The translations under genes were made by a program, and so were the position numbers. Positions 6,924-24,391 of a stretch of 32,000 nucleotides of DNA are shown here, one piece after another. Source of the stretch: Psychrobacter sp. DM4. GTDB taxonomy: Bacteria > Pseudomonadota > Gammaproteobacteria > Pseudomonadales > Moraxellaceae. The notes below the pieces were generated by a model. It had not been told where the DNA came from. It searched no databases and saw only the letters and a list, made by a program, of their open reading frames with translations. The first letter of the stretch is position 1. Each line of letters opens with the position of its first letter. The stretch lies in contig NZ_CP195536.1 of assembly GCF_051307035.1 (NCBI RefSeq), positions 180,001 to 212,000 of the forward strand, read 5' to 3'.

Positions 6924-8261
6924 TTACTGGGCATAAAACAAGGCATTACGCATCACTGGTGGTAGATATTTAGTCAGACCGCGCGTGGTAGGCAAGGATT
7001 GTGCCGTTGCGCTCTCATCTAGCTTCAATGTGGCTTGCGCTTTTATGTGTAATTTTTTTTCATCAGCATTGGGTTTACTAAAGTGATGAATACGCTTGAT
7101 AACCTGTTTGAGCTGCTGCGCAAAGCTGCCAGTATTGTATGCCAGGCCGTACTTTTTGCATATGTCTTGTACTTGCGGCGCAATGCGCGTATAGCGGTTG
7201 GCTGGCATATCAGGAAAGATATGATGCTCGATCTGATGGGACAAATGACCGGTCAAAATATGAAACCACTTGCGACCTGTGATATTACTTGAACCCAGTA
7301 TCTGCCTGGCATACCAGTCGCCGCGGCTCTCATTGTCATCGAGATGGGTGTAGATATGTGCCTGCTCAGTAAAATGACCACAAAATATCACCGCCCAAGT
7401 CCAAACGTTACGTACGATGTTGGCAGTAACGTTACCACTAACTGTCATCATAGCACTGCGAGCACCAAATACTAGCCCTGCGAGCGCAGGGGTAGCGATA
7501 TAATCTTTGCCCACTTGGCGCTTTATCTTATTAAATAGAGCTTGAGACTTCGGCTTCATGATTTCGGCTAAGCGTGTATCGTTTGCATATTCATCAACGC
7601 TAATCTGTATGTCATGAAATGCTACCGCCCACTCAAACCCTAATGCCAAGATCATCGTACTCAACAAGTTGTTGCGATCGCTTGGCGTCCAAGGCTGCTC
7701 ATCGGTCACTCGGATAAGATGATACCCTACATCGTGGTCACGACCTACAATATTGGTAAAGGTATGATGCAAATAATTATGCGAATGCTGCCAGAGCGGC
7801 GCTGGACAGACAATGTCCCAATCGAACTTCTGACTATTCAAATGCGGATGCTGCATCCAGTCATATTGACCGTGCATAACATTGTGCCCAAGCTCCATAT
7901 TGTTTAGAATTTTACTAAAACTCAGTAAAGAGGTGCCCAGCAGCCAAAGACCCAGTTGCTTGTGACGCGACGAGGGATAAGCGGCGATGCCGAGCAGACC
8001 ACGTGCTAGGAGCTCGCTATAAACGACTGCGCTATAAATACGCTGGATGTAATGAGCGTCCTCTGCGCCAAGAGATGCCATCATGCTATTGTATAGGGCA
8101 TCTAACTCAGCAGCCATAGCCTCAGTTTGTGCTTTTGATAATGGCGCACCGCTCAAGGTAGGATAAGGCATATGTGCTGACGATAGATTATCTATGACAG
8201 GCGAGATAGATGTCGTAGGAAGCGCTGATCGAGCACTAAACATAGGAGATAATAAACGCAT
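6924..8261 (-). CDS. Membrane fatty-acid (acyl-CoA/lipid) desaturase, DesB-like
   Basis: Three histidine boxes are present: HNVMH, HSHNYLHH and HQIEHH. Hydrophobic segments are present, an AAGGA Shine-Dalgarno lies upstream, and the gene sits directly downstream of a ferredoxin-reductase gene. Confidence 0.85.
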   Translation of the reverse strand: MRLLSPMFSARSALPTTSISPVIDNLSSAHMPYPTLSGAPLSKAQTEAMAAELDALYNSMMASLGAEDAHYIQRIYSAVVYSELLARGLLGIAAYPSSRHKQLGLWLLGTSLLSFSKILNNMELGHNVMHGQYDWMQHPHLNSQKFDWDIVCPAPLWQHSHNYLHHTFTNIVGRDHDVGYHLIRVTDEQPWTPSDRNNLLSTMILALGFEWAVAFHDIQISVDEYANDTRLAEIMKPKSQALFNKIKRQVGKDYIATPALAGLVFGARSAMMTVSGNVTANIVRNVWTWAVIFCGHFTEQAHIYTHLDDNESRGDWYARQILGSSNITGRKWFHILTGHLSHQIEHHIFPDMPANRYTRIAPQVQDICKKYGLAYNTGSFAQQLKQVIKRIHHFSKPNADEKKLHIKAQATLKLDESATAQSLPTTRGLTKYLPPVMRNALFYAQ

Positions 8262-8354
8262 AAAAATTCCTTAGTTGAAGCAGTAACTATGGGCCAATAT
8301 ATGATAGATATATGAGACTTATGGTCGAAAACCTTAAGAGCTGTATATCGGATT

Positions 8355-8395
8355 CTTTGCATCTCAAAGTGCTTTCACTTTACATCTCAAAGTGC
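8355..8395 (-). promoter_or_regulatory. Duplicated 18-nt element with nested palindromes in the reductase-desaturase spacer
   Basis: ctttGcatctcaaagtgc (8355-8372) and ctttAcatctcaaagtgc (8378-8395) differ at one base and have a 23-bp period. The region contains CTTTG-N5-CAAAG, AAAGTG-N4-CACTTT and CACTTT-N7-AAAGTG arms. Confidence 0.5.
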
Positions 8396-8407
8396 CCTAC
8401 TTGTTGT

Positions 8408-9523
8408 CTAAATATCGAGTATGACATCCGTTAAAGGCACATTAATACAAGTTTGAATAGATTCAAAACCGTCGCTGCTGACAGCGCCCGTCTGAATGTT
8501 TTTGACCTGACCACTTATCTTTTGACAGCGACATAGATGACAGATACCTCGGCGACATCCATAAGTCAGGCGTATACCGGCCGCTTCAGCACTCGCGAGC
8601 AAAGTAGTATCACTAGGGAACTGTCGTTGTCGTCCTCGTAGATAAACGGTTCGCTCTACGATATCGGTCTCATTTCGAACTTCGTCGTAGCTAGGAGTAC
8701 TCGTACCAAATTGTTCTACAGTAATATTGTCGCGTAGCGAAGTGTCATACTCTGAGCCGATATCACTGGCTGCCTGATAAAGGCTTGATAATAACCCTTG
8801 CGAGCCACAAGCATATATTTGCGTTCGATTGAGTGGTAGTCCAAGTGCTAGCAGACTCTGAGCAGTTAAATGACGGCTGTTTGCAAGATAAGTACTGGCG
8901 TCTTCGGTTACAATAAGATGGTAACGAAACCTAGAATACCTCGAAGATAAAGATGACCAAATAGACGTCAATATAGGGCTGCGATTGTAATGAAGCAAAG
9001 TCACCACCTGTCCATTCTGTAGCGCTTGGGTTATCAGTCCTAGCATCGGCGTAATTCCGCTACCGCTAGCGATACATAATACCGGTGAAGTGTTATTCGG
9101 CGTCAGTACAAAACTGCCACTTGGTACACTGCATTCAAAAACATCACCGAGCTCTGCGTGCCAAGTTAGATGCTTAGATATCAGACCTTGAGTCTTGATG
9201 GCGATAGTAATAGTGTGCGGTGTTTGGCTCTCCCACCATAGACTCTGTTTGGATAACCCTACTAACGAATACTGGCGCTGGTGACGAATACCCTCTATCG
9301 GAATGATTACACTAACGTGCTGTCCACCCTGCCACTTATTTTTGGACTGCTGACGAAAAGCATAATTCGTCTCAAATTGAAAGGCAATAAAATCATCGTC
9401 CAGCATGTGTCTTGCCATCAAGCGCAATTTTGGTACAGTTAAGGACCAAAAAGGATGTATACGCGTACTCATAAAATCCATAAAGACGCGCTGGATAATC
9501 TCAGGCTGATAGCCAGTCGTCAT
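8408..9523 (-). CDS. Ferredoxin-NAD(P)H reductase with C-terminal 2Fe-2S domain (DesC-like partner of the desaturase)
   Basis: It has the flavin motif 'RQYSLV', the NAD(P) motif 'ASGSGITP', and a C-terminal plant-type ferredoxin Cys cluster 'CRRGICHLCRC'. Confidence 0.85.
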   Translation of the reverse strand: MTTGYQPEIIQRVFMDFMSTRIHPFWSLTVPKLRLMARHMLDDDFIAFQFETNYAFRQQSKNKWQGGQHVSVIIPIEGIRHQRQYSLVGLSKQSLWWESQTPHTITIAIKTQGLISKHLTWHAELGDVFECSVPSGSFVLTPNNTSPVLCIASGSGITPMLGLITQALQNGQVVTLLHYNRSPILTSIWSSLSSRYSRFRYHLIVTEDASTYLANSRHLTAQSLLALGLPLNRTQIYACGSQGLLSSLYQAASDIGSEYDTSLRDNITVEQFGTSTPSYDEVRNETDIVERTVYLRGRQRQFPSDTTLLASAEAAGIRLTYGCRRGICHLCRCQKISGQVKNIQTGAVSSDGFESIQTCINVPLTDVILDI

Positions 9524-11711: not shown

Positions 11712-14507
11712 TTAACGCTTACGCCCAAATTTGCGCTGTTTTTTATTGCTAATCTCTGTAATAGCATGCGCAATCTCATCGTCATCCAAATTTGCCACTT
11801 GCTGCAAGGTTTGCATGATATCGGTTCCTAATACGTACTTGGCGTGCTGAGCAATATCATTGATGCGCTGATCAAAGGTTAGGACTCCTGATTCTGCGTC
11901 TTTTTGAAGATAATTAAGACGTTTAAGGGCGGCGACAAAACTGGTGAACAGTGCACGATCAAAAAAGTCAGGAATATCATCTGCGTAGAGCACTGATAAG
12001 CGCTGACCGAGCAGATGGCACAGATCGACCACTTCATCTTCAGTCAAATTACCAGAGCCTTGCTGCGCGAGCAGGGCAAGCGTCATAAAATAACGCTCAA
12101 GGCTTTGTTCGACAGGCGTTGCTAACACTTGAAGCTGCTGATACCTACTACTATTGGCTTCAGGTACACTCAACTTACCATCGCTTAGCTCAACGATGAG
12201 TCCATGAGCGATCATGTTATCGATTTTTTTATTCAAAGTGTCTTTTAGACCATGTGCTGGATAGTACAAGAACAGCTCCGTTTGTAGGAACGGATACAAC
12301 TGCTCGACTATACCATCAAGGCGGCTGCGTTCAATGCGACCATTACGCGCAACAAGCGCGGCTAAGAACGACATCAAGATAAAGACATGCAAGATGTTAT
12401 TGCGAAAGTAGCTCAGTAGCGCCGCTTGTTTGCCCGCGACTTGTATAATATCACCTAAAATATGCGGTATACGCTCAATCAGTTTGAGCTTGATGCCGTA
12501 GTCGATGATTTGCTGCGGCGTCATAACGGTGACGATCGTATCGTCAGAGTAGGGCATGTTACTTGCGATATTGTGATAAAGCGCAATCTGCTCACGGCAG
12601 ATATCTTCATCAAGAGCTGCTTTTGGTGCTGATAGCAATACCAAGGAGAGCAAGGACACAGGGTTAACTACTGCCGCTTTATTGATGTGCTGCATGATCT
12701 TGATACCGATATTATCGACCATCGCACTGGTATTGTCATCAAGTGGTGTATCGGTGCGATCCGTAGGCAAACTATTGGCAGGCACATCGAACTTTTGCAT
12801 AAAGTCCTCAATGTGGAGCGGCGTACCAAAACTTAAATGCACTGATCCAAAGATACGCTCGATTTTGCGTCCGACTTTGAGCAGACCTATTAGCGACTCT
12901 GACTCTTTAGGTTTACCCTTAAGCTCGCCGATGTAGGTGACGCCCTCCATAATGCGCTCGTAACCAATATAGGTTGGAATAAATACTACAGGCTTATTAG
13001 TGCGGCGCAGCTGACTGTGAATCGTCATCGCTAGCATACCCATCTTGGGTGGTAGCAGACGCCCTGAACGGGAGCGCCCGCCTTCGATAAAGTATTCGAT
13101 AGGCGTATTACGAGTGATAAGCGTATGCATATACTCACGTAAAACGGCGGTATACAACGCATTACCACGAAAGCTACGACGAATATAAAAAGCAACAGCG
13201 CCGCGTAATAGCGATCCCAATATGGGGACATCTAGATTATCACCCGCCGCCACATAAGGAATGCTCAGACCGCGCTTATAGATGACATAGGAGAGTAATA
13301 AATAATCAACATGACTGCGATGACAAGGCACGTAGATGATTTCGTAATCCGTTGCTAGAGCCCGCACACGTTCAAAATGATGGACTTCCACACCGTCATA
13401 TAGCTGCGTCCACAACCAAGTCAAAAATTTATCAAAGATACGAATGACTTGATAAGAGTAATCGTTGACCATCTCATTAGCATAGTCCTTGGCCGTTGCT
13501 CGCGCCTCGCGAACACTAACGCCACTGGCTACAGCTTCAGTTTCTATCGCATGTTTGATAGCAGGGGAGTAGATGAGCTTATCGACTAGATTACGCCTAT
13601 CTGATAAATCCGGTCCAAGCATACTGGCACGCTGTTTATCGAGATAAATATTGAGCTGCTGCTGTAGTGAGCGTACTAGTTCACGATGACCATCACTCGC
13701 TGTCATGAGTTCATGAGACGGCGTATCGTTATTACTAGTGAATGTGCTTGTGTTAGAAGTATTGGCTTCAGAAGTGTGGATAATATCAGCTTCAGTCAAA
13801 GCTGTGATATCGACCGCTACTGCGGCCTCTACATTGATAGACATCGGCTCGTCCGCTATAAGCTCGTCAGGCAGACGCTTATAAATAGCTTGGCGCAAGT
13901 CCTGCGGCGCGTGGAACTGTACAAAAGTATCGCGGCCCATAACGCCAATGTTAAATAACTGTTTGGTGATCCCAGGATCTTCCCAGTTGTCCGTCATAAG
14001 CAGTTTGAACAGTGAATCTTCTTTTTCAGGAGCGCGTCCCCACAGTATAGAGACAGGGATGAGTCTAATCTTTAAATCAGGGTAGCGCAAAATAGCAGCA
14101 ATGAGCCGTGCTAGGCGCGGCGAGAGTTGATCGTCTTTTGCCTTTGGATGATGCAAAAATATAATACCAGCGTTCTCGTAGATGTCATGCGCGTGGTCAC
14201 TGACTTGAGCCAAAGCGGGCGGTAGACTGTGCTCCCCAGTCTGCAAGTCAATCAAGAGACTATTGGAGCGCGAATAATCTTGCAACACATAAAAGGTCAG
14301 GGTCTGATCGTCACCATCGAACTGCGGCACTTCACCTAAGAGCTTAGGCTTGACTGCGACATCGAGCGCTTGTCCCGATATCTTGCGATACAGCTGATTT
14401 AGAGGCGTATTGCCTTGAGGCTTGTCTATCGACTTAACCGTTTTGTTTGGAGCGTTATCCTTAACGGGCGCTCTAAAAAGGCGTTTTTTTATAAACTTAG
14501 GTATCAT
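11712..14507 (-). CDS. plsB: Glycerol-3-phosphate 1-O-acyltransferase PlsB
   Basis: It has the acyltransferase H(X)4D block 'PCHRSHVDYLLLSYV' and 'YFIEGGRSRSGRLL.PK.G'. It is collinear with PlsB over the full length but longer, at 931 aa. Confidence 0.93.
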   Translation of the reverse strand: MIPKFIKKRLFRAPVKDNAPNKTVKSIDKPQGNTPLNQLYRKISGQALDVAVKPKLLGEVPQFDGDDQTLTFYVLQDYSRSNSLLIDLQTGEHSLPPALAQVSDHAHDIYENAGIIFLHHPKAKDDQLSPRLARLIAAILRYPDLKIRLIPVSILWGRAPEKEDSLFKLLMTDNWEDPGITKQLFNIGVMGRDTFVQFHAPQDLRQAIYKRLPDELIADEPMSINVEAAVAVDITALTEADIIHTSEANTSNTSTFTSNNDTPSHELMTASDGHRELVRSLQQQLNIYLDKQRASMLGPDLSDRRNLVDKLIYSPAIKHAIETEAVASGVSVREARATAKDYANEMVNDYSYQVIRIFDKFLTWLWTQLYDGVEVHHFERVRALATDYEIIYVPCHRSHVDYLLLSYVIYKRGLSIPYVAAGDNLDVPILGSLLRGAVAFYIRRSFRGNALYTAVLREYMHTLITRNTPIEYFIEGGRSRSGRLLPPKMGMLAMTIHSQLRRTNKPVVFIPTYIGYERIMEGVTYIGELKGKPKESESLIGLLKVGRKIERIFGSVHLSFGTPLHIEDFMQKFDVPANSLPTDRTDTPLDDNTSAMVDNIGIKIMQHINKAAVVNPVSLLSLVLLSAPKAALDEDICREQIALYHNIASNMPYSDDTIVTVMTPQQIIDYGIKLKLIERIPHILGDIIQVAGKQAALLSYFRNNILHVFILMSFLAALVARNGRIERSRLDGIVEQLYPFLQTELFLYYPAHGLKDTLNKKIDNMIAHGLIVELSDGKLSVPEANSSRYQQLQVLATPVEQSLERYFMTLALLAQQGSGNLTEDEVVDLCHLLGQRLSVLYADDIPDFFDRALFTSFVAALKRLNYLQKDAESGVLTFDQRINDIAQHAKYVLGTDIMQTLQQVANLDDDEIAHAITEISNKKQRKFGRKR

Positions 14508-18910: not shown

Positions 18911-19321
18911 GCTAAAGTATCCTAAGCGTAAAAAGCTATGATAAGGGATAAACACATCATTAACAAATTTGTACCGACAGCGGTTATTACCTGTAACCTA
19001 AACGCTAGTCAACGCCATAGCAGTTAGGTAAACTGTGGTCACAAAGAACGATAGTCCTCTAGGCGAGGGCTACTATCAATAATGCTTAACTGATAGTGTC
19101 AAACTGATAGTGCTTGACGATTAAAAATCCCTAATGACCAAAAACTACTTGATGATTGGCGCAATTATTGCATTTACCTATCGTATTGATAATGTGATCG
19201 ATACTCTTAGACCGTCTATATTAATGTGCAAGTACTGCAATATAATTTTGAGCGTTATCATCCTAGACCTTATAACAATAAGCTTTGTCACGACAAGCTT
19301 CTAAGTGTGAGTAAACAACCC

Positions 19322-19966
19322 ATGTGGAACACCCCTTTACAGACTTTTATGGTCACTATAATGATGGCAGCTGGCCTCTCACTGAGCGCTTGCAATAGCT
19401 CTGAGCCAGAGGTGAGTGAGACCAATACCTTAGACAATAGCGAAGAACAGGTAGTTGCTGACGCTTCAGATTCTGCCAGTACTGACCTAGATGGCGCTGT
19501 GAGTGATCAAGGCACGCCTGTTGTTTACGAGGTGTCCACTTGGAACACTGATGCCGTTACTTCTTTAAAGATAAATGATCTAAAGGCGATTACTACCACT
19601 TTAGGCAGTGTGGTCACAACTGATGAGAATAGCTTGGACTACGCCAGTAATCCGGCGTCTAAATACCGCTTGATGGCTGCAGACCAGCCCTATTTGGATC
19701 TGATTGATTCGGATAAGTATCTGGAGCTTGGCTGGTACTATGCCAACCCAACAGACTCAGACGCCGAAAAAGAACTAAGCCTCAACCATGCCAAAAAATC
19801 CAATACAGTCATGCGCCAGCTGATGGGAGACGACGGCAGTAAGCTACTTGCCAATATATTAAGCGGTCAAATCATCAAAAACGAGACCATCGGTGGTCAA
19901 AAAGTTGAGCTGGCCAAATGCGAGTTTTATAGCTGTATGCTGATACTCAATAAGTCAGGCGCTTAA
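19322..19966 (+). CDS. Lipoprotein of unknown function
   Basis: The internal Met at 19322 gives MWNTPLQTFMVTIMMAAGLSLSAC with a lipobox (LSAC), followed by an acidic Ser/Asp-rich linker. The stop lies 18 nt before pabC. Confidence 0.6.
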   Translation: MWNTPLQTFMVTIMMAAGLSLSACNSSEPEVSETNTLDNSEEQVVADASDSASTDLDGAVSDQGTPVVYEVSTWNTDAVTSLKINDLKAITTTLGSVVTTDENSLDYASNPASKYRLMAADQPYLDLIDSDKYLELGWYYANPTDSDAEKELSLNHAKKSNTVMRQLMGDDGSKLLANILSGQIIKNETIGGQKVELAKCEFYSCMLILNKSGA

Positions 19967-19984: not shown

Positions 19985-20977
19985 ATGAATGTTCAGTCTA
20001 ACGCTTGGGTACGTCTTACGATTCAAGATGACGTAATAAGAACTGAGGACATAACGCCAGACAATCGCGGCATGGCTTATGGTGATGGGTTCTTTACCAC
20101 TATGGGCGTCATGGACGGCGCGATACTTTGGCAAAACTACCATGTCGCACGCTTGATATCGCATAGCGCGGCATTAGAGCTGAGCGTAAACGCGCAAACT
20201 CTGATAGTTGAGTTACAACCTTTCGCTCAGCGTCTTAACCAAGGTATTCTCAAACTTATCATTACTCGCACGCCGCAGCACATACGCGGTTATGGCTATA
20301 CGCCTGATAGCTTGGGGCAAACTTGCGCGATTTGGCTCAAATCATCCGCGCTACCGATTGCGCCTTTAGACTATCTATCACTGCTAGATGGGCGCGCTAT
20401 ATTTCAGCAGCCCGCTAAACGCGCTATCTGCTTATCCGCGCAACTTGCCTGCCTACCACCGCCACTCGCTGGACTCAAAACCCTCAATCGACTCGATAGT
20501 GTGCTGGCGAGTGGCGAGTTACAACGCCTGCAAGAGGGCTTGCAAGAACGTCTGCAAACACGCAAGCAAGCGCAAACCCCAAACGTCGATAACCAATGGG
20601 GTGAAGGGCTGGTACGTGATATGCGTGGTCAGTGGGTTGAGGGTACGATGAGCAATGTGTTCTATCAGCTCATAGATGCTGGCGATAAGGTAAAGATGAG
20701 CGGTGACCCAGTCGCAAATATAGCCTACTCGATAGATAACTTGACAAGCGGTCAATGGTATACGCCATCGATGATGCATTCAGGGGTTGCAGGAATTATG
20801 CGTCAAGTTATCATTGATGCCCTAGCTACGACGGGTAAGCCTGTCATCATCCGTCCGCTGCTAGATGAGGATTTGCCACAATTAAACCAGCTGTTCTTTT
20901 GCAATGCGGTACGCGGCGTTATGCCTGTGTCTGATTTGACGTTGTTAACGGGTGAGGTGGTGGCTTTATCTCTATAA
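19985..20977 (+). CDS. pabC: Aminodeoxychorismate lyase PabC (class IV aminotransferase fold)
   Basis: It has 'NRGMAYGDGFFTT' near the N-terminus and 'GIMRQ' plus 'FFCNAVRGVMPV' near the C-terminus. It occupies the classical position upstream of mltG-tmk. Confidence 0.8.
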   Translation: MNVQSNAWVRLTIQDDVIRTEDITPDNRGMAYGDGFFTTMGVMDGAILWQNYHVARLISHSAALELSVNAQTLIVELQPFAQRLNQGILKLIITRTPQHIRGYGYTPDSLGQTCAIWLKSSALPIAPLDYLSLLDGRAIFQQPAKRAICLSAQLACLPPPLAGLKTLNRLDSVLASGELQRLQEGLQERLQTRKQAQTPNVDNQWGEGLVRDMRGQWVEGTMSNVFYQLIDAGDKVKMSGDPVANIAYSIDNLTSGQWYTPSMMHSGVAGIMRQVIIDALATTGKPVIIRPLLDEDLPQLNQLFFCNAVRGVMPVSDLTLLTGEVVALSL

Positions 20978-20980
20978 ATC

Positions 20981-21172
20981 TTACTTCTTATCAAAAATAT
21001 TAAATTGGGTGTCTATTAAATCGTCGTAGTCCAGTTGGATATCTTCGTTTCTATACTTTTCTTGGGCCTCTAAAATCGCTGATGATTCCTCTTGAGCGAC
21101 TACTTCTATAATAGCGCTCATCGTCTCCACTATTTCTACCTCGTAAGTGTATAAGTCTTTTTTAATCGTCAT
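20981..21172 (-). CDS. Small acidic DpnD/PcfM-like protein
   Basis: MTIKKDLYTYEVEIVETMSAIIEVVAQEESSAILEAQEKYRNEDIQLDYDDLIDTQF fits my recollection of the DpnD/PcfM pattern (Y.VEI.E......V.A.....A......Y.NE.I.LD.DD). It lies downstream of the DpnI-like gene, as in the pneumococcal cassette. The ATG at 21172 has a GAGAG Shine-Dalgarno; the tracked start at 21196 is TTG. Confidence 0.5.
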   Translation of the reverse strand: MTIKKDLYTYEVEIVETMSAIIEVVAQEESSAILEAQEKYRNEDIQLDYDDLIDTQFNIFDKK

Positions 21173-21207
21173 TATTTCTCTCACTTTTGCTATCAATTTG
21201 TGCTAAT

Positions 21208-21308
21208 GATCCTAGCAAAAACCATTTGGAGAAGTGATCGCATAATGTAGAGAGATGATCGTCTTTTGTTAATCACGCTTGCGTCATGATGCTAATCGAT
21301 CAATGATC
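21208..21308. promoter_or_regulatory. Cluster of five GATC sites in the spacer between the DpnI-like and DpnD-like genes
   Basis: GATC occurs at 21208, 21236, 21257, 21298 and 21305. TGCTAAT(C)GATC is repeated at 21201-21211 and 21290-21301. I found no GATC by eye elsewhere in 20978-22312. Confidence 0.6.
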
Positions 21309-21372
21309 ACTTTCAACAAAATACGGTTAAAAGGACAGGGTCATGCGTTCAGTATATGAAAATGAAAAGCGT

Positions 21373-22137
21373 CTAGTATGATTTTTGATAATGTCCACGG
21401 CTTGAAAACTCGATGATGCCTTTATCACGCAAGATTTGTAGTTGCTGGCGAATTTTGGGATGGATGTGTTTGTTGTTGGGATGTTTAAGACTTAACTCAT
21501 TAGCAAACGCATAAACTTGTTGGAGGGTGAATCTGTCACCCAACCTATCAATACAGTGCCAGACGTCCAACGTCCAGCCGCGTGAGGTTATCGACTGCTC
21601 CCGCAAAAACAAGGTTTTTTGAAACTGCTCAGTGACATTTTTACGAGGTATAACTTGTCTATCTTTGACCAAAAACACTTTACCAGAGTCAGGGATTTTG
21701 CGCAAATCAATATTGCAACCAACCCAGCTAGCACGCTTTGCTGTTGGCGCTAAGGGCTTACGTTTAATAATCATGTCAGGAGTAAAAAATTGCTTGGGAA
21801 TAATTAAGAAGTTATTGACGGTAAATTGTGGCGAGTAAGTCAAAAAGAAAAAGCTTGGATTATCCTTACTGTTAATGCGCTCAATCATCGTGGTATAAGC
21901 GCCATCATTGACGATATTGCTCAATTTTGCCTTTTTACTTTTTAACTCATATTGCTCAGTACAATTTGTACAATAAAAATCAGCAACGGGCTTACCATTT
22001 GCAAATTCCGATAGCGGCTGGTTGTTACAGTTAGGGCAATAACTTTGCTTGGCGACCCAGTCTTCACTGAGCACTCTTATGATTTGGCTAGGTGATTTGT
22101 AGTTTTTGGCAAGACTTTGGTTAAAGTTTAGATTCAT
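21373..22137 (-). CDS. dpnC: DpnI-family methyl-directed type IIM restriction endonuclease (G(m6A)TC-specific family)
   Basis: It is collinear with my recollection of S. pneumoniae DpnI from residue 1: 'YKS.SQ..R.L.EDWV..QSYCPNC.N.PL..F.N..PVADFYC..C.E..ELKSKK', 'NDGAY.TM..R......P.FFFLTY', 'RKPLAPTA.RA.W.GCNIDL' and a C-terminal winged-helix 'IRQQLQILRDK.IIEF'. Its 254 aa matches the DpnI length. Confidence 0.85.
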   Translation of the reverse strand: MNLNFNQSLAKNYKSPSQIIRVLSEDWVAKQSYCPNCNNQPLSEFANGKPVADFYCTNCTEQYELKSKKAKLSNIVNDGAYTTMIERINSKDNPSFFFLTYSPQFTVNNFLIIPKQFFTPDMIIKRKPLAPTAKRASWVGCNIDLRKIPDSGKVFLVKDRQVIPRKNVTEQFQKTLFLREQSITSRGWTLDVWHCIDRLGDRFTLQQVYAFANELSLKHPNNKHIHPKIRQQLQILRDKGIIEFSSRGHYQKSY

Positions 22138-22255
22138 AGGAGGTTATCGTCGAAACGCTGAGAATGTCTTTATAGAAGTATAAATAAAATGATGACTAAT
22201 AGGCTATATATCTTGTCTTAAACGCCAAGTTAATCCACAAGCTAAGCAAATGCCA

Positions 22256-22284
22256 TTGAAAACCTGACGGTTCAGTGCTAAATT
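22256..22284 (+). promoter_or_regulatory. Candidate sigma70 promoter for mltG
   Basis: TTGAAA (22256-22261), a 17-nt spacer, then TAAATT (22279-22284), about 29 nt upstream of the mltG ATG. Confidence 0.35.
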
Positions 22285-22312
22285 CTAGCAAACATCTGCC
22301 TTTAGAGTTGCC

Positions 22313-23620
22313 ATGAGCACGCCGACACCCGAAACACCGCCTAATAAAGTCAACGACACTGATGAGACCTCATCTAACAATTCAAAAAATGACGTAGGCC
22401 ATGACACTAGCACTGATAATAAGCACATCGATGCGACCGCTAGCCAGCCATTGAGTACTGAAGTCGAGGACAAGGCACCAGCGACGGATATCTCTTTGGT
22501 CAGCGGTCAAACTAAACCCCGCAAGTACAAAAAAGATAACCCCTCGTTCTTTATGCAACGTGGCTACCAGATATTACTCGTCCTTGGACTCATAGCAGCG
22601 TTTTTGCTCGTGATAGTTTATCAGACCTTGTTTGGGCGCATCACTCAGCCCGCGCAAAAGGTCACCATTGAGCAGGGCGATACTTATTATGGCTTATTGC
22701 CGCAGTGGCAACAGCAGATTCCGCTGTTTTCAGCGACGATTGGCAAGCTGTATATCAAATCACAAGTTGACGCGCCCTTGCACGCAGGGATTTATCAGCT
22801 ACCTGACAACCCAACGATGGCAGAGGTGCTACAAGTACTAGAGCAAGGCGCAAAAGTGGCGATGGTCAAGGTACAAGTCATCGAAGGCAAAACCGCAAAC
22901 GATCTGTATCAGAATCTACGTGACAATCCAGGCATCAAAAAAGAAGTACTTATAGCAGACGCGGACAACCAGAGCATCGCTGCGGCGCTAGATTTGGTCG
23001 GTATCTTGCCAGACTCAGTAACGTCTAGTAATGATCCTATCGTCAGCTATAATCTAGAGGGTTGGTTCACCCCAGACACCTACTACTACGGCGAGGGCGC
23101 TACGGACACGCAAGTACTCACCGATCTGTATAAGCGCCAGCAACAGGCATTGACCAAAGCGTGGGAAAACCGCGCACCGGACTTGCCTTATGAGACGCCA
23201 TATCAAGCGCTGGTGATGGCCTCTATCATCGAAAAAGAAACCAGCGTGGCCGAGGAGCGTCCACTAGTTTCAGCGGTCTTTAACAACCGCTTGAAAAAAG
23301 GCATGCGCATGCAAACGGATCCGACCATTATCTATGGTATGGGTAGCCGCTATGATGGCAATATTCGCCGCGCTGACATCGATGAAAAGACAGGGTATAA
23401 CACTTATCAGATTGATGGTTTGCCGCCAACGCCTATCTCTTTGCCATCGCCTACCTCTATTGAGGCGACTTTGCATCCAGCGGATAGTGAAGCTCTATAC
23501 TTTGTAGCGACAGGAACGGGCGGGCACAAATTTACCAATAACTTGGCAGATCATAACCGCGCGGTACAAGAATACCTCAAAGTCATGCGTGAGAAAAAGT
23601 CACAGACGCCGCCAGAATAA
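22313..23620 (+). CDS. mltG: Endolytic murein transglycosylase MltG (YceG family) with a long polar N-terminal extension
   Basis: It has a single TM helix 'ILLVLGLIAAFLLVIVY' followed by a YceG domain ('LVMASIIEKET', 'VFNNRLKKGMRMQTDPT.IYG', 'YNTY...GLPP.PI..P'). Confidence 0.9.
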   Translation: MSTPTPETPPNKVNDTDETSSNNSKNDVGHDTSTDNKHIDATASQPLSTEVEDKAPATDISLVSGQTKPRKYKKDNPSFFMQRGYQILLVLGLIAAFLLVIVYQTLFGRITQPAQKVTIEQGDTYYGLLPQWQQQIPLFSATIGKLYIKSQVDAPLHAGIYQLPDNPTMAEVLQVLEQGAKVAMVKVQVIEGKTANDLYQNLRDNPGIKKEVLIADADNQSIAAALDLVGILPDSVTSSNDPIVSYNLEGWFTPDTYYYGEGATDTQVLTDLYKRQQQALTKAWENRAPDLPYETPYQALVMASIIEKETSVAEERPLVSAVFNNRLKKGMRMQTDPTIIYGMGSRYDGNIRRADIDEKTGYNTYQIDGLPPTPISLPSPTSIEATLHPADSEALYFVATGTGGHKFTNNLADHNRAVQEYLKVMREKKSQTPPE

Positions 23621-23719: not shown

Positions 23720-24391
23720 ATGCCAGCACTACCAAGCAGCTCTACGCAAACGGCGTCCAATAAGGGGCGCTTTATTAGTTTTGAGGGTACTGAAGGCGTC
23801 GGTAAGACAACGGCCATTGATAATCTTTGCAATCAACTACAAACAGCGGGTATTGATCATATTCGGACCCGTGAGCCAGGGGGTAGCCCATTCGCTGAGT
23901 GCCTGCGCACTATACTCCTCGACCCTATGACCAACATTAATGATGACACCGAGCTGTTACTACTATTCGCCGCGCGCTGCGACCATATAGAGCAAGTGAT
24001 TATGCCAGCGCTGGCACGCGGTACTTGGGTTATCTGCGATCGTTTTGTCGACTCGACGATGGCGTATCAAGGCTACGGCCGCACGTATGGTGAGCCGCTG
24101 GTACTCTCAAAAATAGAGCAGCTCACTGAGCAGTTTATTCCGTATTTACCAGATCTAACACTATGGCTTGATTTGCCGGTACTTGAGGGCATGGCTCGAG
24201 CAGGCAAGCGTAGCACCGCCGACCGTTTTGAGCAGCAGGCAACAGAGTTTTTTACCCGTGTGCACGAAGGGTTTACGGCTTTGGCTGCCGCGCATCCCGA
24301 GCGCATCTATCGCATAGAGGCCACTGGTAGCAGTGAAAAGGTTGGCGCGCGGGTATGGCAAGCTGTTGAGAATAAATTTGATATGGCTTAG
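23720..24391 (+). CDS. tmk: Thymidylate kinase
   Basis: It has the P-loop 'GRFISFEGTEGVGKTT', the 'DR' motif 'CDRFVDSTMAYQG', and a lid region. Confidence 0.93.
   Translation: MPALPSSSTQTASNKGRFISFEGTEGVGKTTAIDNLCNQLQTAGIDHIRTREPGGSPFAECLRTILLDPMTNINDDTELLLLFAARCDHIEQVIMPALARGTWVICDRFVDSTMAYQGYGRTYGEPLVLSKIEQLTEQFIPYLPDLTLWLDLPVLEGMARAGKRSTADRFEQQATEFFTRVHEGFTALAAAHPERIYRIEATGSSEKVGARVWQAVENKFDMA

Follow-up and report, generated by a model that had tools for sequence, protein, structure and literature searches.

A segment at 20978-22246 of a 32,000-nucleotide stretch of Psychrobacter sp. DM4 DNA (hereafter, the window), located between a pabC-like gene and mltG, is best read as one allele, of the DpnI type, at an exchangeable restriction locus in the genus Psychrobacter, a reading to which we assign a probability of about 0.75. 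The open reading frame (ORF) listing shows two minus-strand genes between the stop codon of the pabC-like gene (20977) and the start codon of mltG (22313): dpnI (21373-22137), predicted to encode a 254-amino-acid orthologue of the type IIM methyl-directed restriction endonuclease DpnI, and a small dpnD-like gene (20981..21172). An earlier note on this DNA, made without database searches, had described two such genes exactly between these two coordinates and had likened their order to that of a Firmicute cassette; the genes hold up, and they are not a recent Firmicute import.

The 254-amino-acid protein matches Pfam families PF06044 (E value 2e-80) and PF17726 (3e-32, over residues 185-252), the PADLOC model mREase_II (3e-117) and the PDB entry of R.DpnI (4esj, 1.5e-101, over residues 1-252), confirming that both domains of DpnI are present, as the earlier note had proposed. 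Its identity to the pneumococcal enzyme is 57%. The residues that form the PD-(D/E)XK catalytic site (E25, D53, E64 and K66) occupy identical positions in the window protein and 12 further Psychrobacter copies, and so do the zinc-site cysteines C34/C37/C56/C59, which make up two CXXC motifs in the catalytic domain (residue roles in R.DpnI from PMC3424567). These copies also keep the methyl-cleft residues L129, R135, W138 and G140, as well as the base contacts R126, D78 and Q18 (roles from PMC4117772). The C-terminal winged-helix domain, which in R.DpnI separately reads Gm6ATC (PMC3424567, PMC4117772), retains its K/R pair (K229/R231 region), and the motif KIRQQLQILRDK is conserved. Selection on dpnI is purifying, with a dN/dS of about 0.1 in unsaturated pairs of Psychrobacter copies. 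Public records already annotate both genes of the cassette, which as such are ordinary: the dpnI product of DM4 is named "DpnI domain-containing protein" by NCBI, and the copy in Psychrobacter arcticus 273-4 "putative type II restriction endonuclease DpnI".

Judging by these matches, we have very little doubt that the window gene is a true R.DpnI orthologue, and it is likely that the enzyme is active and acts specifically on methylated GATC, and that the host leaves its own GATC sites unmethylated. The last point would follow from the logic of the enzyme, from the mutually exclusive cassette states described below and from the Moraxellaceae background, where an orphan Dam is generally not known. 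Family scans found no methyltransferase within the 32-kb window, in agreement with the earlier note, and the other large ORFs there are housekeeping genes; in about 490 kb of DpnI-bearing loci the sole methylase homologues were truncated dpnA-like remnants lacking DPPY. The dpnI gene of Psychrobacter frigidicola (L013:7069-7836) is split into ORFs of 181 and 61 amino acids and is for this reason probably a pseudogene.

Comparison across the genus revealed that the pabC-mltG junction exists in several states. We fetched the mltG neighbourhood, with 10-kb flanks, from one genome per Psychrobacter species (25 loci, L001-L025) and placed the genes by tblastn. In about 15 of the 25 loci the junction holds dpnI, three (L002, L007 and L019) have a GATC-type insert of 3-4 kb in its place, and in five the junction is empty, with pabC and mltG adjacent and separated by a gap of 197-286 bp. 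Since the two genes are directly adjacent in these five relatives, the segment represents an insertion/deletion polymorphism. Neither a Psychrobacter DpnI locus nor a Psychrobacter GATC methylome was found described in the literature searched.

Aligning the junction in related genomes, an approach suggested by the earlier note, also resolved the borders of the variable segment. Border mapping in 19 loci placed the left border of both cassette types 0-6 bp past the pabC stop codon, and the last ~66 bp ahead of the mltG ATG are conserved in the DpnI-type, DpnII-type and empty states, so that the variable segment in the window extends from 20978 to about 22246. DNA homology between the cassette types is limited to the flanks. 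The right end of the segment is the cassette-specific region upstream of dpnI (22138..22246, no strand assigned), which, in 13 loci aligned ahead of mltG, is poorly kept between species. It is followed by the conserved mltG promoter/leader (22247..22312, plus strand), which contains a promoter-like TTGAAA-17-TAAATT at 22256-22284 and serves as the right homologous flank, with the pabC-like gene (19985..20977, plus strand) as the left one. In P. phenylpyruvicus (L021:2665-8000), about 5.3 kb lie between dpnI and mltG, including a gene for a 1030-amino-acid YjbH/GfcC-type exopolysaccharide protein, which indicates that this hot spot takes other cargo as well.

The alternative cassettes (L002:4327-7918, L007:4125-7843 and L019:4790-7813) are of the DpnII type. 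The one in L007 encodes a DpnII-family endonuclease (PF04556, 9e-92), a D12 adenine methylase with pneumococcal DpnM as its closest PDB entry (1e-46), a DpnA-like N6_N4 methylase, a helix-turn-helix (HTH) controller and two uncharacterised ORFs. All three cassettes share a dpnA-like gene (frameshifted in L002), an ORF of ~82 amino acids and the HTH module. L002 and L019 also carry a D12 methylase, and their candidate endonucleases differ: a 447-amino-acid DUF6996/6997/7226 protein matching PADLOC REase_II in L002, and in L019 a 225-amino-acid protein that matches phrog_15364 only.

Sequence divergence indicates a long residence of the cassette in the genus, with mostly vertical inheritance. 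Comparison of the window with each relative shows saturation at synonymous sites (proportion of synonymous differences about 0.75), and the pairwise identity of DpnI correlates with that of the flanking genes (Spearman 0.55) nearly as the two flanking genes correlate with each other (0.60). G+C content is 38.4% in the cassette, compared with 44.6% in the window and 49-52% in pabC, mltG and tmk, so the AT-richness seen by the earlier note in sampled lines is real. The cassette is also below the G+C content of its own locus in 13/13 intact copies measured; since all 13 copies are G+C-poor, the low value is no sign of recent arrival. The finding that the earlier note would have counted against itself, both genes in all relatives and with matching composition, was not obtained: the site is polymorphic, and the composition of the cassette departs from that of its surroundings in every one of these copies.

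A neighbour-joining tree built from MltG+Tmk has DpnI-type loci throughout the sampled genus. DpnII-type loci appear at three separate places, one of them (L002) as the sister of the DpnI-type L003, and empty sites at three further places. A trace of such a switch may be preserved in five metagenomic DpnI-type loci (L042, L051 at 8163-8876, L053, L068 and L069), where a 5'-truncated dpnA-like gene lies between pabC and dpnD. This gene covers residues 45-274 of the L007 gene at ~90% identity, is devoid of the FADPPYF motif, has no internal stop in 4/5 copies and occupies the position of the dpnA slot of DpnII-type cassettes. We read this fossil as a scar left when a DpnII-type cassette was replaced by a DpnI-type one.

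The earlier note had seen no recombinase and no target-site duplication, and had left the mobilisation route blank. Indeed, scans of the window and of the cassette borders found no tRNA, terminator-like site, recombinase, target-site duplication or other border or flanking repeat, and the cassettes show none of the hallmarks of an integrase island: no tRNA/att site, no cassette ORF assigned to a recombinase family and no repeats at the borders. As to the route, the alternative cassettes, the empty sites, the flank-only homology and the dpnA-like fossil together point to replacement by homologous recombination, and we consider exchange through the flanks reasonably probable. Natural transformation has been reported for one Psychrobacter isolate (PMC3364145), cassette replacement through flank recombination is described for the pneumococcal dpn locus (PMC3573125, PMC3812788, PMC4471560), and the same mechanism is described for the leuS/dam/drg "minimal mobile element" of Neisseria (PMC4269198, PMC516771).

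The locus would then work as follows. DpnI would cut GATC only where its adenines carry N6-methyl groups, as the conserved residues suggest, leaving intact a host whose own sites are presumed unmethylated. Because only methylated GATC would be cut, double-stranded phage, plasmid or transforming DNA arriving from GATC-methylating hosts would be destroyed, including DNA from Psychrobacter neighbours that carry a DpnII/MboI-type cassette at the same site. Having no mobility genes, the cassette would be gained, lost or replaced through recombination of DNA taken up from relatives, with the 3' end of pabC and the mltG promoter as recombining flanks. In DM4 an internal opposite-strand gene has been lost, and dpnD would be expressed, as a small acidic protein, from its own conserved upstream region with selected GATC sites.

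Several observations weigh against this reading. N48, a guanine contact in R.DpnI, is replaced by G in the window protein and in three other species cassettes, and is retained as N in the remaining ones. For the L002 and L019 systems, specificity for GATC is presumed from homology to the L007 methylases. The cassette has kept a low G+C content despite its ancient residence. At the L002/L003 switch, divergence is greater in pabC than in the genes next to it, yet pabC evolves fast throughout the genus, so that this signal is ambiguous. Finally, the polymorphism was seen between species representatives and not within one species.

The second gene of the cassette is read from the minus strand at 20981..21172. 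In the ORF listing it extends to a TTG at 21196; translation almost certainly begins at the ATG at 21172 instead, yielding a product of 63 amino acids that equals the NCBI annotation "DpnD/PcfM family protein [Psychrobacter sp. DM4]", and gene callers agree on it in four other assemblies. The assignment made in the earlier note is borne out by a match to PF14207 at 33.3-33.6 bits, above the gathering cut-off of 25, and by 34% identity (E value 2e-10) to the C-terminal ORF of a pneumococcal-type DpnD. The product is acidic (isoelectric point about 4.3), its gene has a dN/dS of 0.05-0.5, and an AlphaFold model gives a beta-beta-alpha-beta fold with a predicted local distance difference test score of 75. 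The domain DpnD_N (PF23117) was not found in the 63-amino-acid protein, which consists of the C-terminal DpnD/PcfM domain alone. The function of DpnD is listed as unknown in the pneumococcal literature (PMC4471560). The earlier note had also seen in the locus the dpnC-dpnD order of the Firmicute cassette: dpnD does lie downstream on the same strand, but the likeness is superficial, as an opposite-strand gene and a regulatory region intervene in most relatives. In the window the gap between dpnI and dpnD is 200 bp and holds a conserved region and the stump of that opposite-strand gene.

The conserved region (21173..21342, minus strand) is non-coding, was aligned across 13 species and represents an ancestrally divergent promoter region upstream of dpnD. 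It contains five GATC sites, at 21208, 21236, 21257, 21298 and 21305, which fall within ~100 bp and make the spacer (176 bp as listed) the densest GATC cluster of the 32 kb; the coding sequences of dpnI and dpnD in the window contain none. Summed over the cassettes, the 160 bp upstream of dpnD hold 32 GATC against 4.2 expected from the background of each locus, and the dpnI and dpnD coding sequences hold 6 against 27.8 expected; these ratios are descriptive only, because the lineages are not independent. In the window alone the cluster reaches P of about 0.05 after correction for scanning. What argues that the cluster is not due to chance is a 14-nt core, ACAAAAGACGATCA (21256..21269, minus strand), which is identical in 13/13 species cassettes despite the saturation of synonymous sites.

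Further along the same region, block A (GATCATTGATCGATT, 21294..21308, minus strand) adjoins the start of the opposite-strand third gene. It is confined to cassettes with that gene or its stump and is missing from L004, L008 and L016. The core is kept in cassettes that have neither the third gene nor block A; since it outlasts their loss, it goes with dpnD. It is absent from the empty-site and DpnII-type loci, and the P. phenylpyruvicus cassette is also without it. An exact 19-mer version of the core was found in 42 metagenome contigs, 38 of which show the same cassette arrangement and 4 unrelated chance contexts. The region also contains an imperfect inverted repeat, TGCTA-N7-TAGCA (21201-21217), a promoter-like TTAACA-17-TACATT (21272..21244) that in the window overlaps the core, and recurring GATC spacings of 41 and 7 bp. 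The window and its closest relative, L001, are the only loci with a 21-bp tandem duplication (21236-21260 in the window), which adds one extra GATC. A copy of the core with one mismatch, GCAAAAGACGATCA, lies at 14128-14141 of the window inside a glycerol-3-phosphate acyltransferase gene; it is probably there by chance, with two matches in 2/100 shuffles.

We also considered the spacer as an RNA: no Rfam match was found at E <= 1, and the fold z-score of -1.2 is not significant. The 13-species alignment shows no conserved small ORF spanning the core. The element may be a promoter or operator in which GATC occurs incidentally, a dpnD promoter that responds to methylation, or a target of the winged helix of DpnI. 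A more specific proposal, which we regard as speculative and unlikely, is that it acts as a methylation sensor coupling the expression of DpnD to the methylation state of the cell, with DpnD modulating DpnI. Such a sensor would fire just after a DpnII-to-DpnI swap, when the chromosome is still methylated, or upon entry of a Dam-bearing invader, and DpnD might, for example, restrain DpnI until the methylation is diluted. If true, this would give DpnD a role and would explain how a cell survives the acquisition of a nuclease directed against its own methylated genome.

GATC is depleted genus-wide, with observed/expected ratios of 0.15-0.72 in all locus classes (L001-L025) and 0.61 in the window. 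CCGG and GGCC are depleted more strongly in the window (0.41 and 0.49, respectively), which hints at other restriction pressures.

Between dpnD and dpnI, most Psychrobacter cassettes contain a third gene of 158-210 amino acids, oriented oppositely to both (L003:6589-7083, L009:2747-3241, L015:6471-6965, L017:6552-7130 and L025:6423-7055). In the window a stump of 12 codons remains of it (21343..21381, plus strand; translation MRSVYENEKRLV*), the end of which overlaps the dpnI stop codon and which matches the N-termini of the family in L003, L006, L009, L010 and L015; about 455 bp of the gene were deleted in this lineage. The trimmed cassette recurs in identical form in four other assemblies. 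The third gene was also lost in L004, L008 and L016, where dpnI and dpnD are intact. Two tandem copies are present in L006 (5920-7109) and L010 (5881-7070), and in L001 (6524-7018) an unrelated ORF of 164 amino acids, with a weak match to phrog_874, replaces it. Variation extends to the interval between dpnD and dpnI itself. Neither the third gene nor the other uncharacterised cassette ORFs gave any Pfam, PADLOC or informative PHROG match.

Four other explanations of the locus were weighed. The best surviving of these, although it too seems improbable to us, is an abortive-infection trigger: the Dam-type methylase of an invader would methylate the chromosome, DpnI would kill the cell, and kin would be protected. 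Such an outcome follows from the specificity of DpnI (PMC3424567), the genus-wide GATC depletion suggests a long-standing GATC-directed conflict, and the window offers no methylase partner. The trigger and ordinary restriction of pre-methylated DNA do not exclude each other.

Slightly more doubtful still is the idea that selection maintains the DpnI homologue chiefly for some cellular or regulatory function and not for defence. Loss of Drg in gonococcus alters gene expression, viability and biofilm, and a regulatory role has been proposed for it (PMC4269198); the long vertical residence and strong purifying selection seen in Psychrobacter, a winged-helix domain that could bind DNA, and conserved GATC sites inside the cassette's own regulatory region would all agree with such a role. 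But the gene is dispensable, as the empty sites, the DpnII-type replacements and the disrupted copy in L013 indicate, all nuclease and methyl-pocket residues are retained, and the winged-helix domain would find none of its preferred sites in an unmethylated host.

That the window cassette is a decaying, non-functional relic is very unlikely. The third gene has been cut to a stump, dpnI is disrupted in another species, and no canonical Shine-Dalgarno sequence precedes dpnI in the window. Against decay, both ORFs are intact with every key residue in place, the three lineages that lost the third gene independently kept the other two, the identical cassette persists in four other assemblies, and purifying selection acts across the family.

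Least likely of all is the origin implied by the earlier note, in which an unspecified mobile vehicle recently brought a Firmicute DpnI cassette into one gammaproteobacterial strain: the AT-richness, the 57% identity to the pneumococcal enzyme and the insertion between genes that are adjacent elsewhere would be expected of it, but the cassette sits at the same junction in most species representatives (about 15/25) and in 38 metagenomic contigs, its divergence tracks that of the flanks with synonymous sites saturated, identity to the pneumococcal enzyme is ~60% in Flavobacterium, Bacteroidales and Psychrobacter alike, the small gene lacks DpnD_N and the architecture differs, and no plasmid or phage carriers were found. 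On this last point, tblastn gave no genuine case of a full-length DpnI relative on a plasmid or phage; the plasmid matches were two 2.17-Mb Neisseria gonorrhoeae chromosomes filed as plasmids and fragments covering the winged helix only. Plasmid matches H3-H6, from Lactiplantibacillus plantarum, show a DpnI_C-like winged-helix segment (42% identity over 66 residues) in genes annotated as sigma-70 family sigma factors.

The genes around the cassette belong to the conserved flanks. The pabC-like gene encodes a class IV aminotransferase (PF01063, 1e-28) whose best NCBIfam matches are aminodeoxychorismate lyase models, under their curated cut-offs. These models match the 330-amino-acid protein in two pieces, each below the cut-off, which suggests an internal insertion. 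Upstream, an ORF of 246 amino acids (19226-19966) without a Pfam match is found in all Psychrobacter loci at 45-82% identity. On the other side, mltG (22313..23620, plus strand) encodes a YceG family endolytic transglycosylase (PF02618, 6e-77; TIGR00247 above cut-off) with a low-complexity N-terminal extension of ~85-115 residues ahead of the YceG domain, and downstream of it lies tmk (23720-24391, PF02223).

MboI of Moraxella bovis, also of the Moraxellaceae, is a DpnII isoschizomer system with two methylases and a GATC endonuclease. By description its make-up is that of the L007 cassette (a D12 methylase, a DpnII-family endonuclease and a second N6_N4 methylase), and it thus resembles the alternative allele, not the one in the window.

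Among the closest parallels to the DM4 locus as a whole is the dpn locus of pneumococcus, where DpnI, DpnII (dpnM-dpnA-dpnB) and DpnIII are alternatives at one site (PMC3573125, PMC4471560). The endonucleases are orthologous, with both domains and the key residues shared, and the pneumococcal DpnI cassette (dpnC-dpnD) likewise has a DpnD/PcfM-domain gene downstream on the same strand and no methylase. In both cases one site holds, according to lineage, either a DpnI-type or a GATC-methylating DpnII-type system (PMC3573125, PMC4471560), with homologous flanks, unrelated interiors and no mobility genes. The sites themselves differ, pabC/mltG in Psychrobacter as opposed to xanthine and galactose genes in pneumococcus, and the polymorphism is seen between species in the former and within species in the latter. 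In a pneumococcal-type locus (L035) dpnC is overlapped by a gene with both DpnD_N (PF23117) and PF14207, whereas in Psychrobacter DpnD has the C-terminal domain only and the two genes do not overlap, being separated by the GATC-bearing region and, ancestrally, by the opposite-strand gene. The DpnII-type cassettes of Psychrobacter, unlike those of pneumococcus, include an HTH controller and a varying endonuclease, and empty sites exist.

The drg gene of Neisseria (NmeBII/Drg) offers a second parallel, as a proteobacterial DpnI homologue with demonstrated GmeATC specificity (PMC4269198, PMC516771). It too lies in a low-GC cassette between conserved flanks, alternating with a Dam methylase at one site, with truncated methylase remnants beside the endonuclease and in a naturally transformable host. 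In N. gonorrhoeae (L034:4853-6182), the drg gene precedes remnants of a dpnA-like methylase. Drg differs in being 48.8% identical to the window protein, in its flanks and in having no dpnD. The alternative allele at the Neisseria leuS locus is reported to be a dam gene, while in Psychrobacter it includes a restriction endonuclease. Neither the pneumococcal-type nor the Neisseria loci compared contain the GATC-bearing element.

More broadly, members of the DpnI family from several phyla share ~60% identity. Elsewhere DpnI stands alone (L036) or is accompanied by another small protein, PF27350 (L037). In the latter, from Flavobacterium, a 67-amino-acid PF27350 gene follows dpnI (L037:4765-4968), and a database protein (P0170) is a DpnI-PF27350 fusion. 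A relationship between DpnD and PF27350 was tried and rejected, with an hhalign probability of 4% and no cross-family Pfam match; by eye, the topology and the C-terminal motif (…IDxxFNI…) of the PF27350 protein look like those of DpnD.

Complementary GATC-directed cassettes at one site are textbook knowledge for pneumococcus and documented for Neisseria. As far as the literature searched shows, three things have not been described before: the genus-wide series of cassette states, the fossil of a switch, and the GATC-bearing element under selection. Psychrobacter would thus be the third independent lineage in which opposite GATC-directed restriction alternates at one site between conserved flanks; natural transformation is established in the first two lineages and reported for one isolate of the third. 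This would support the view of complementary cassettes as a recurrent population-level defence, in which phage grown in one host type are always sensitive in the other, and Psychrobacter offers further handles in its natural series of cassette states, in the fossil of a switch and in the element, through which the function of DpnD becomes experimentally approachable.

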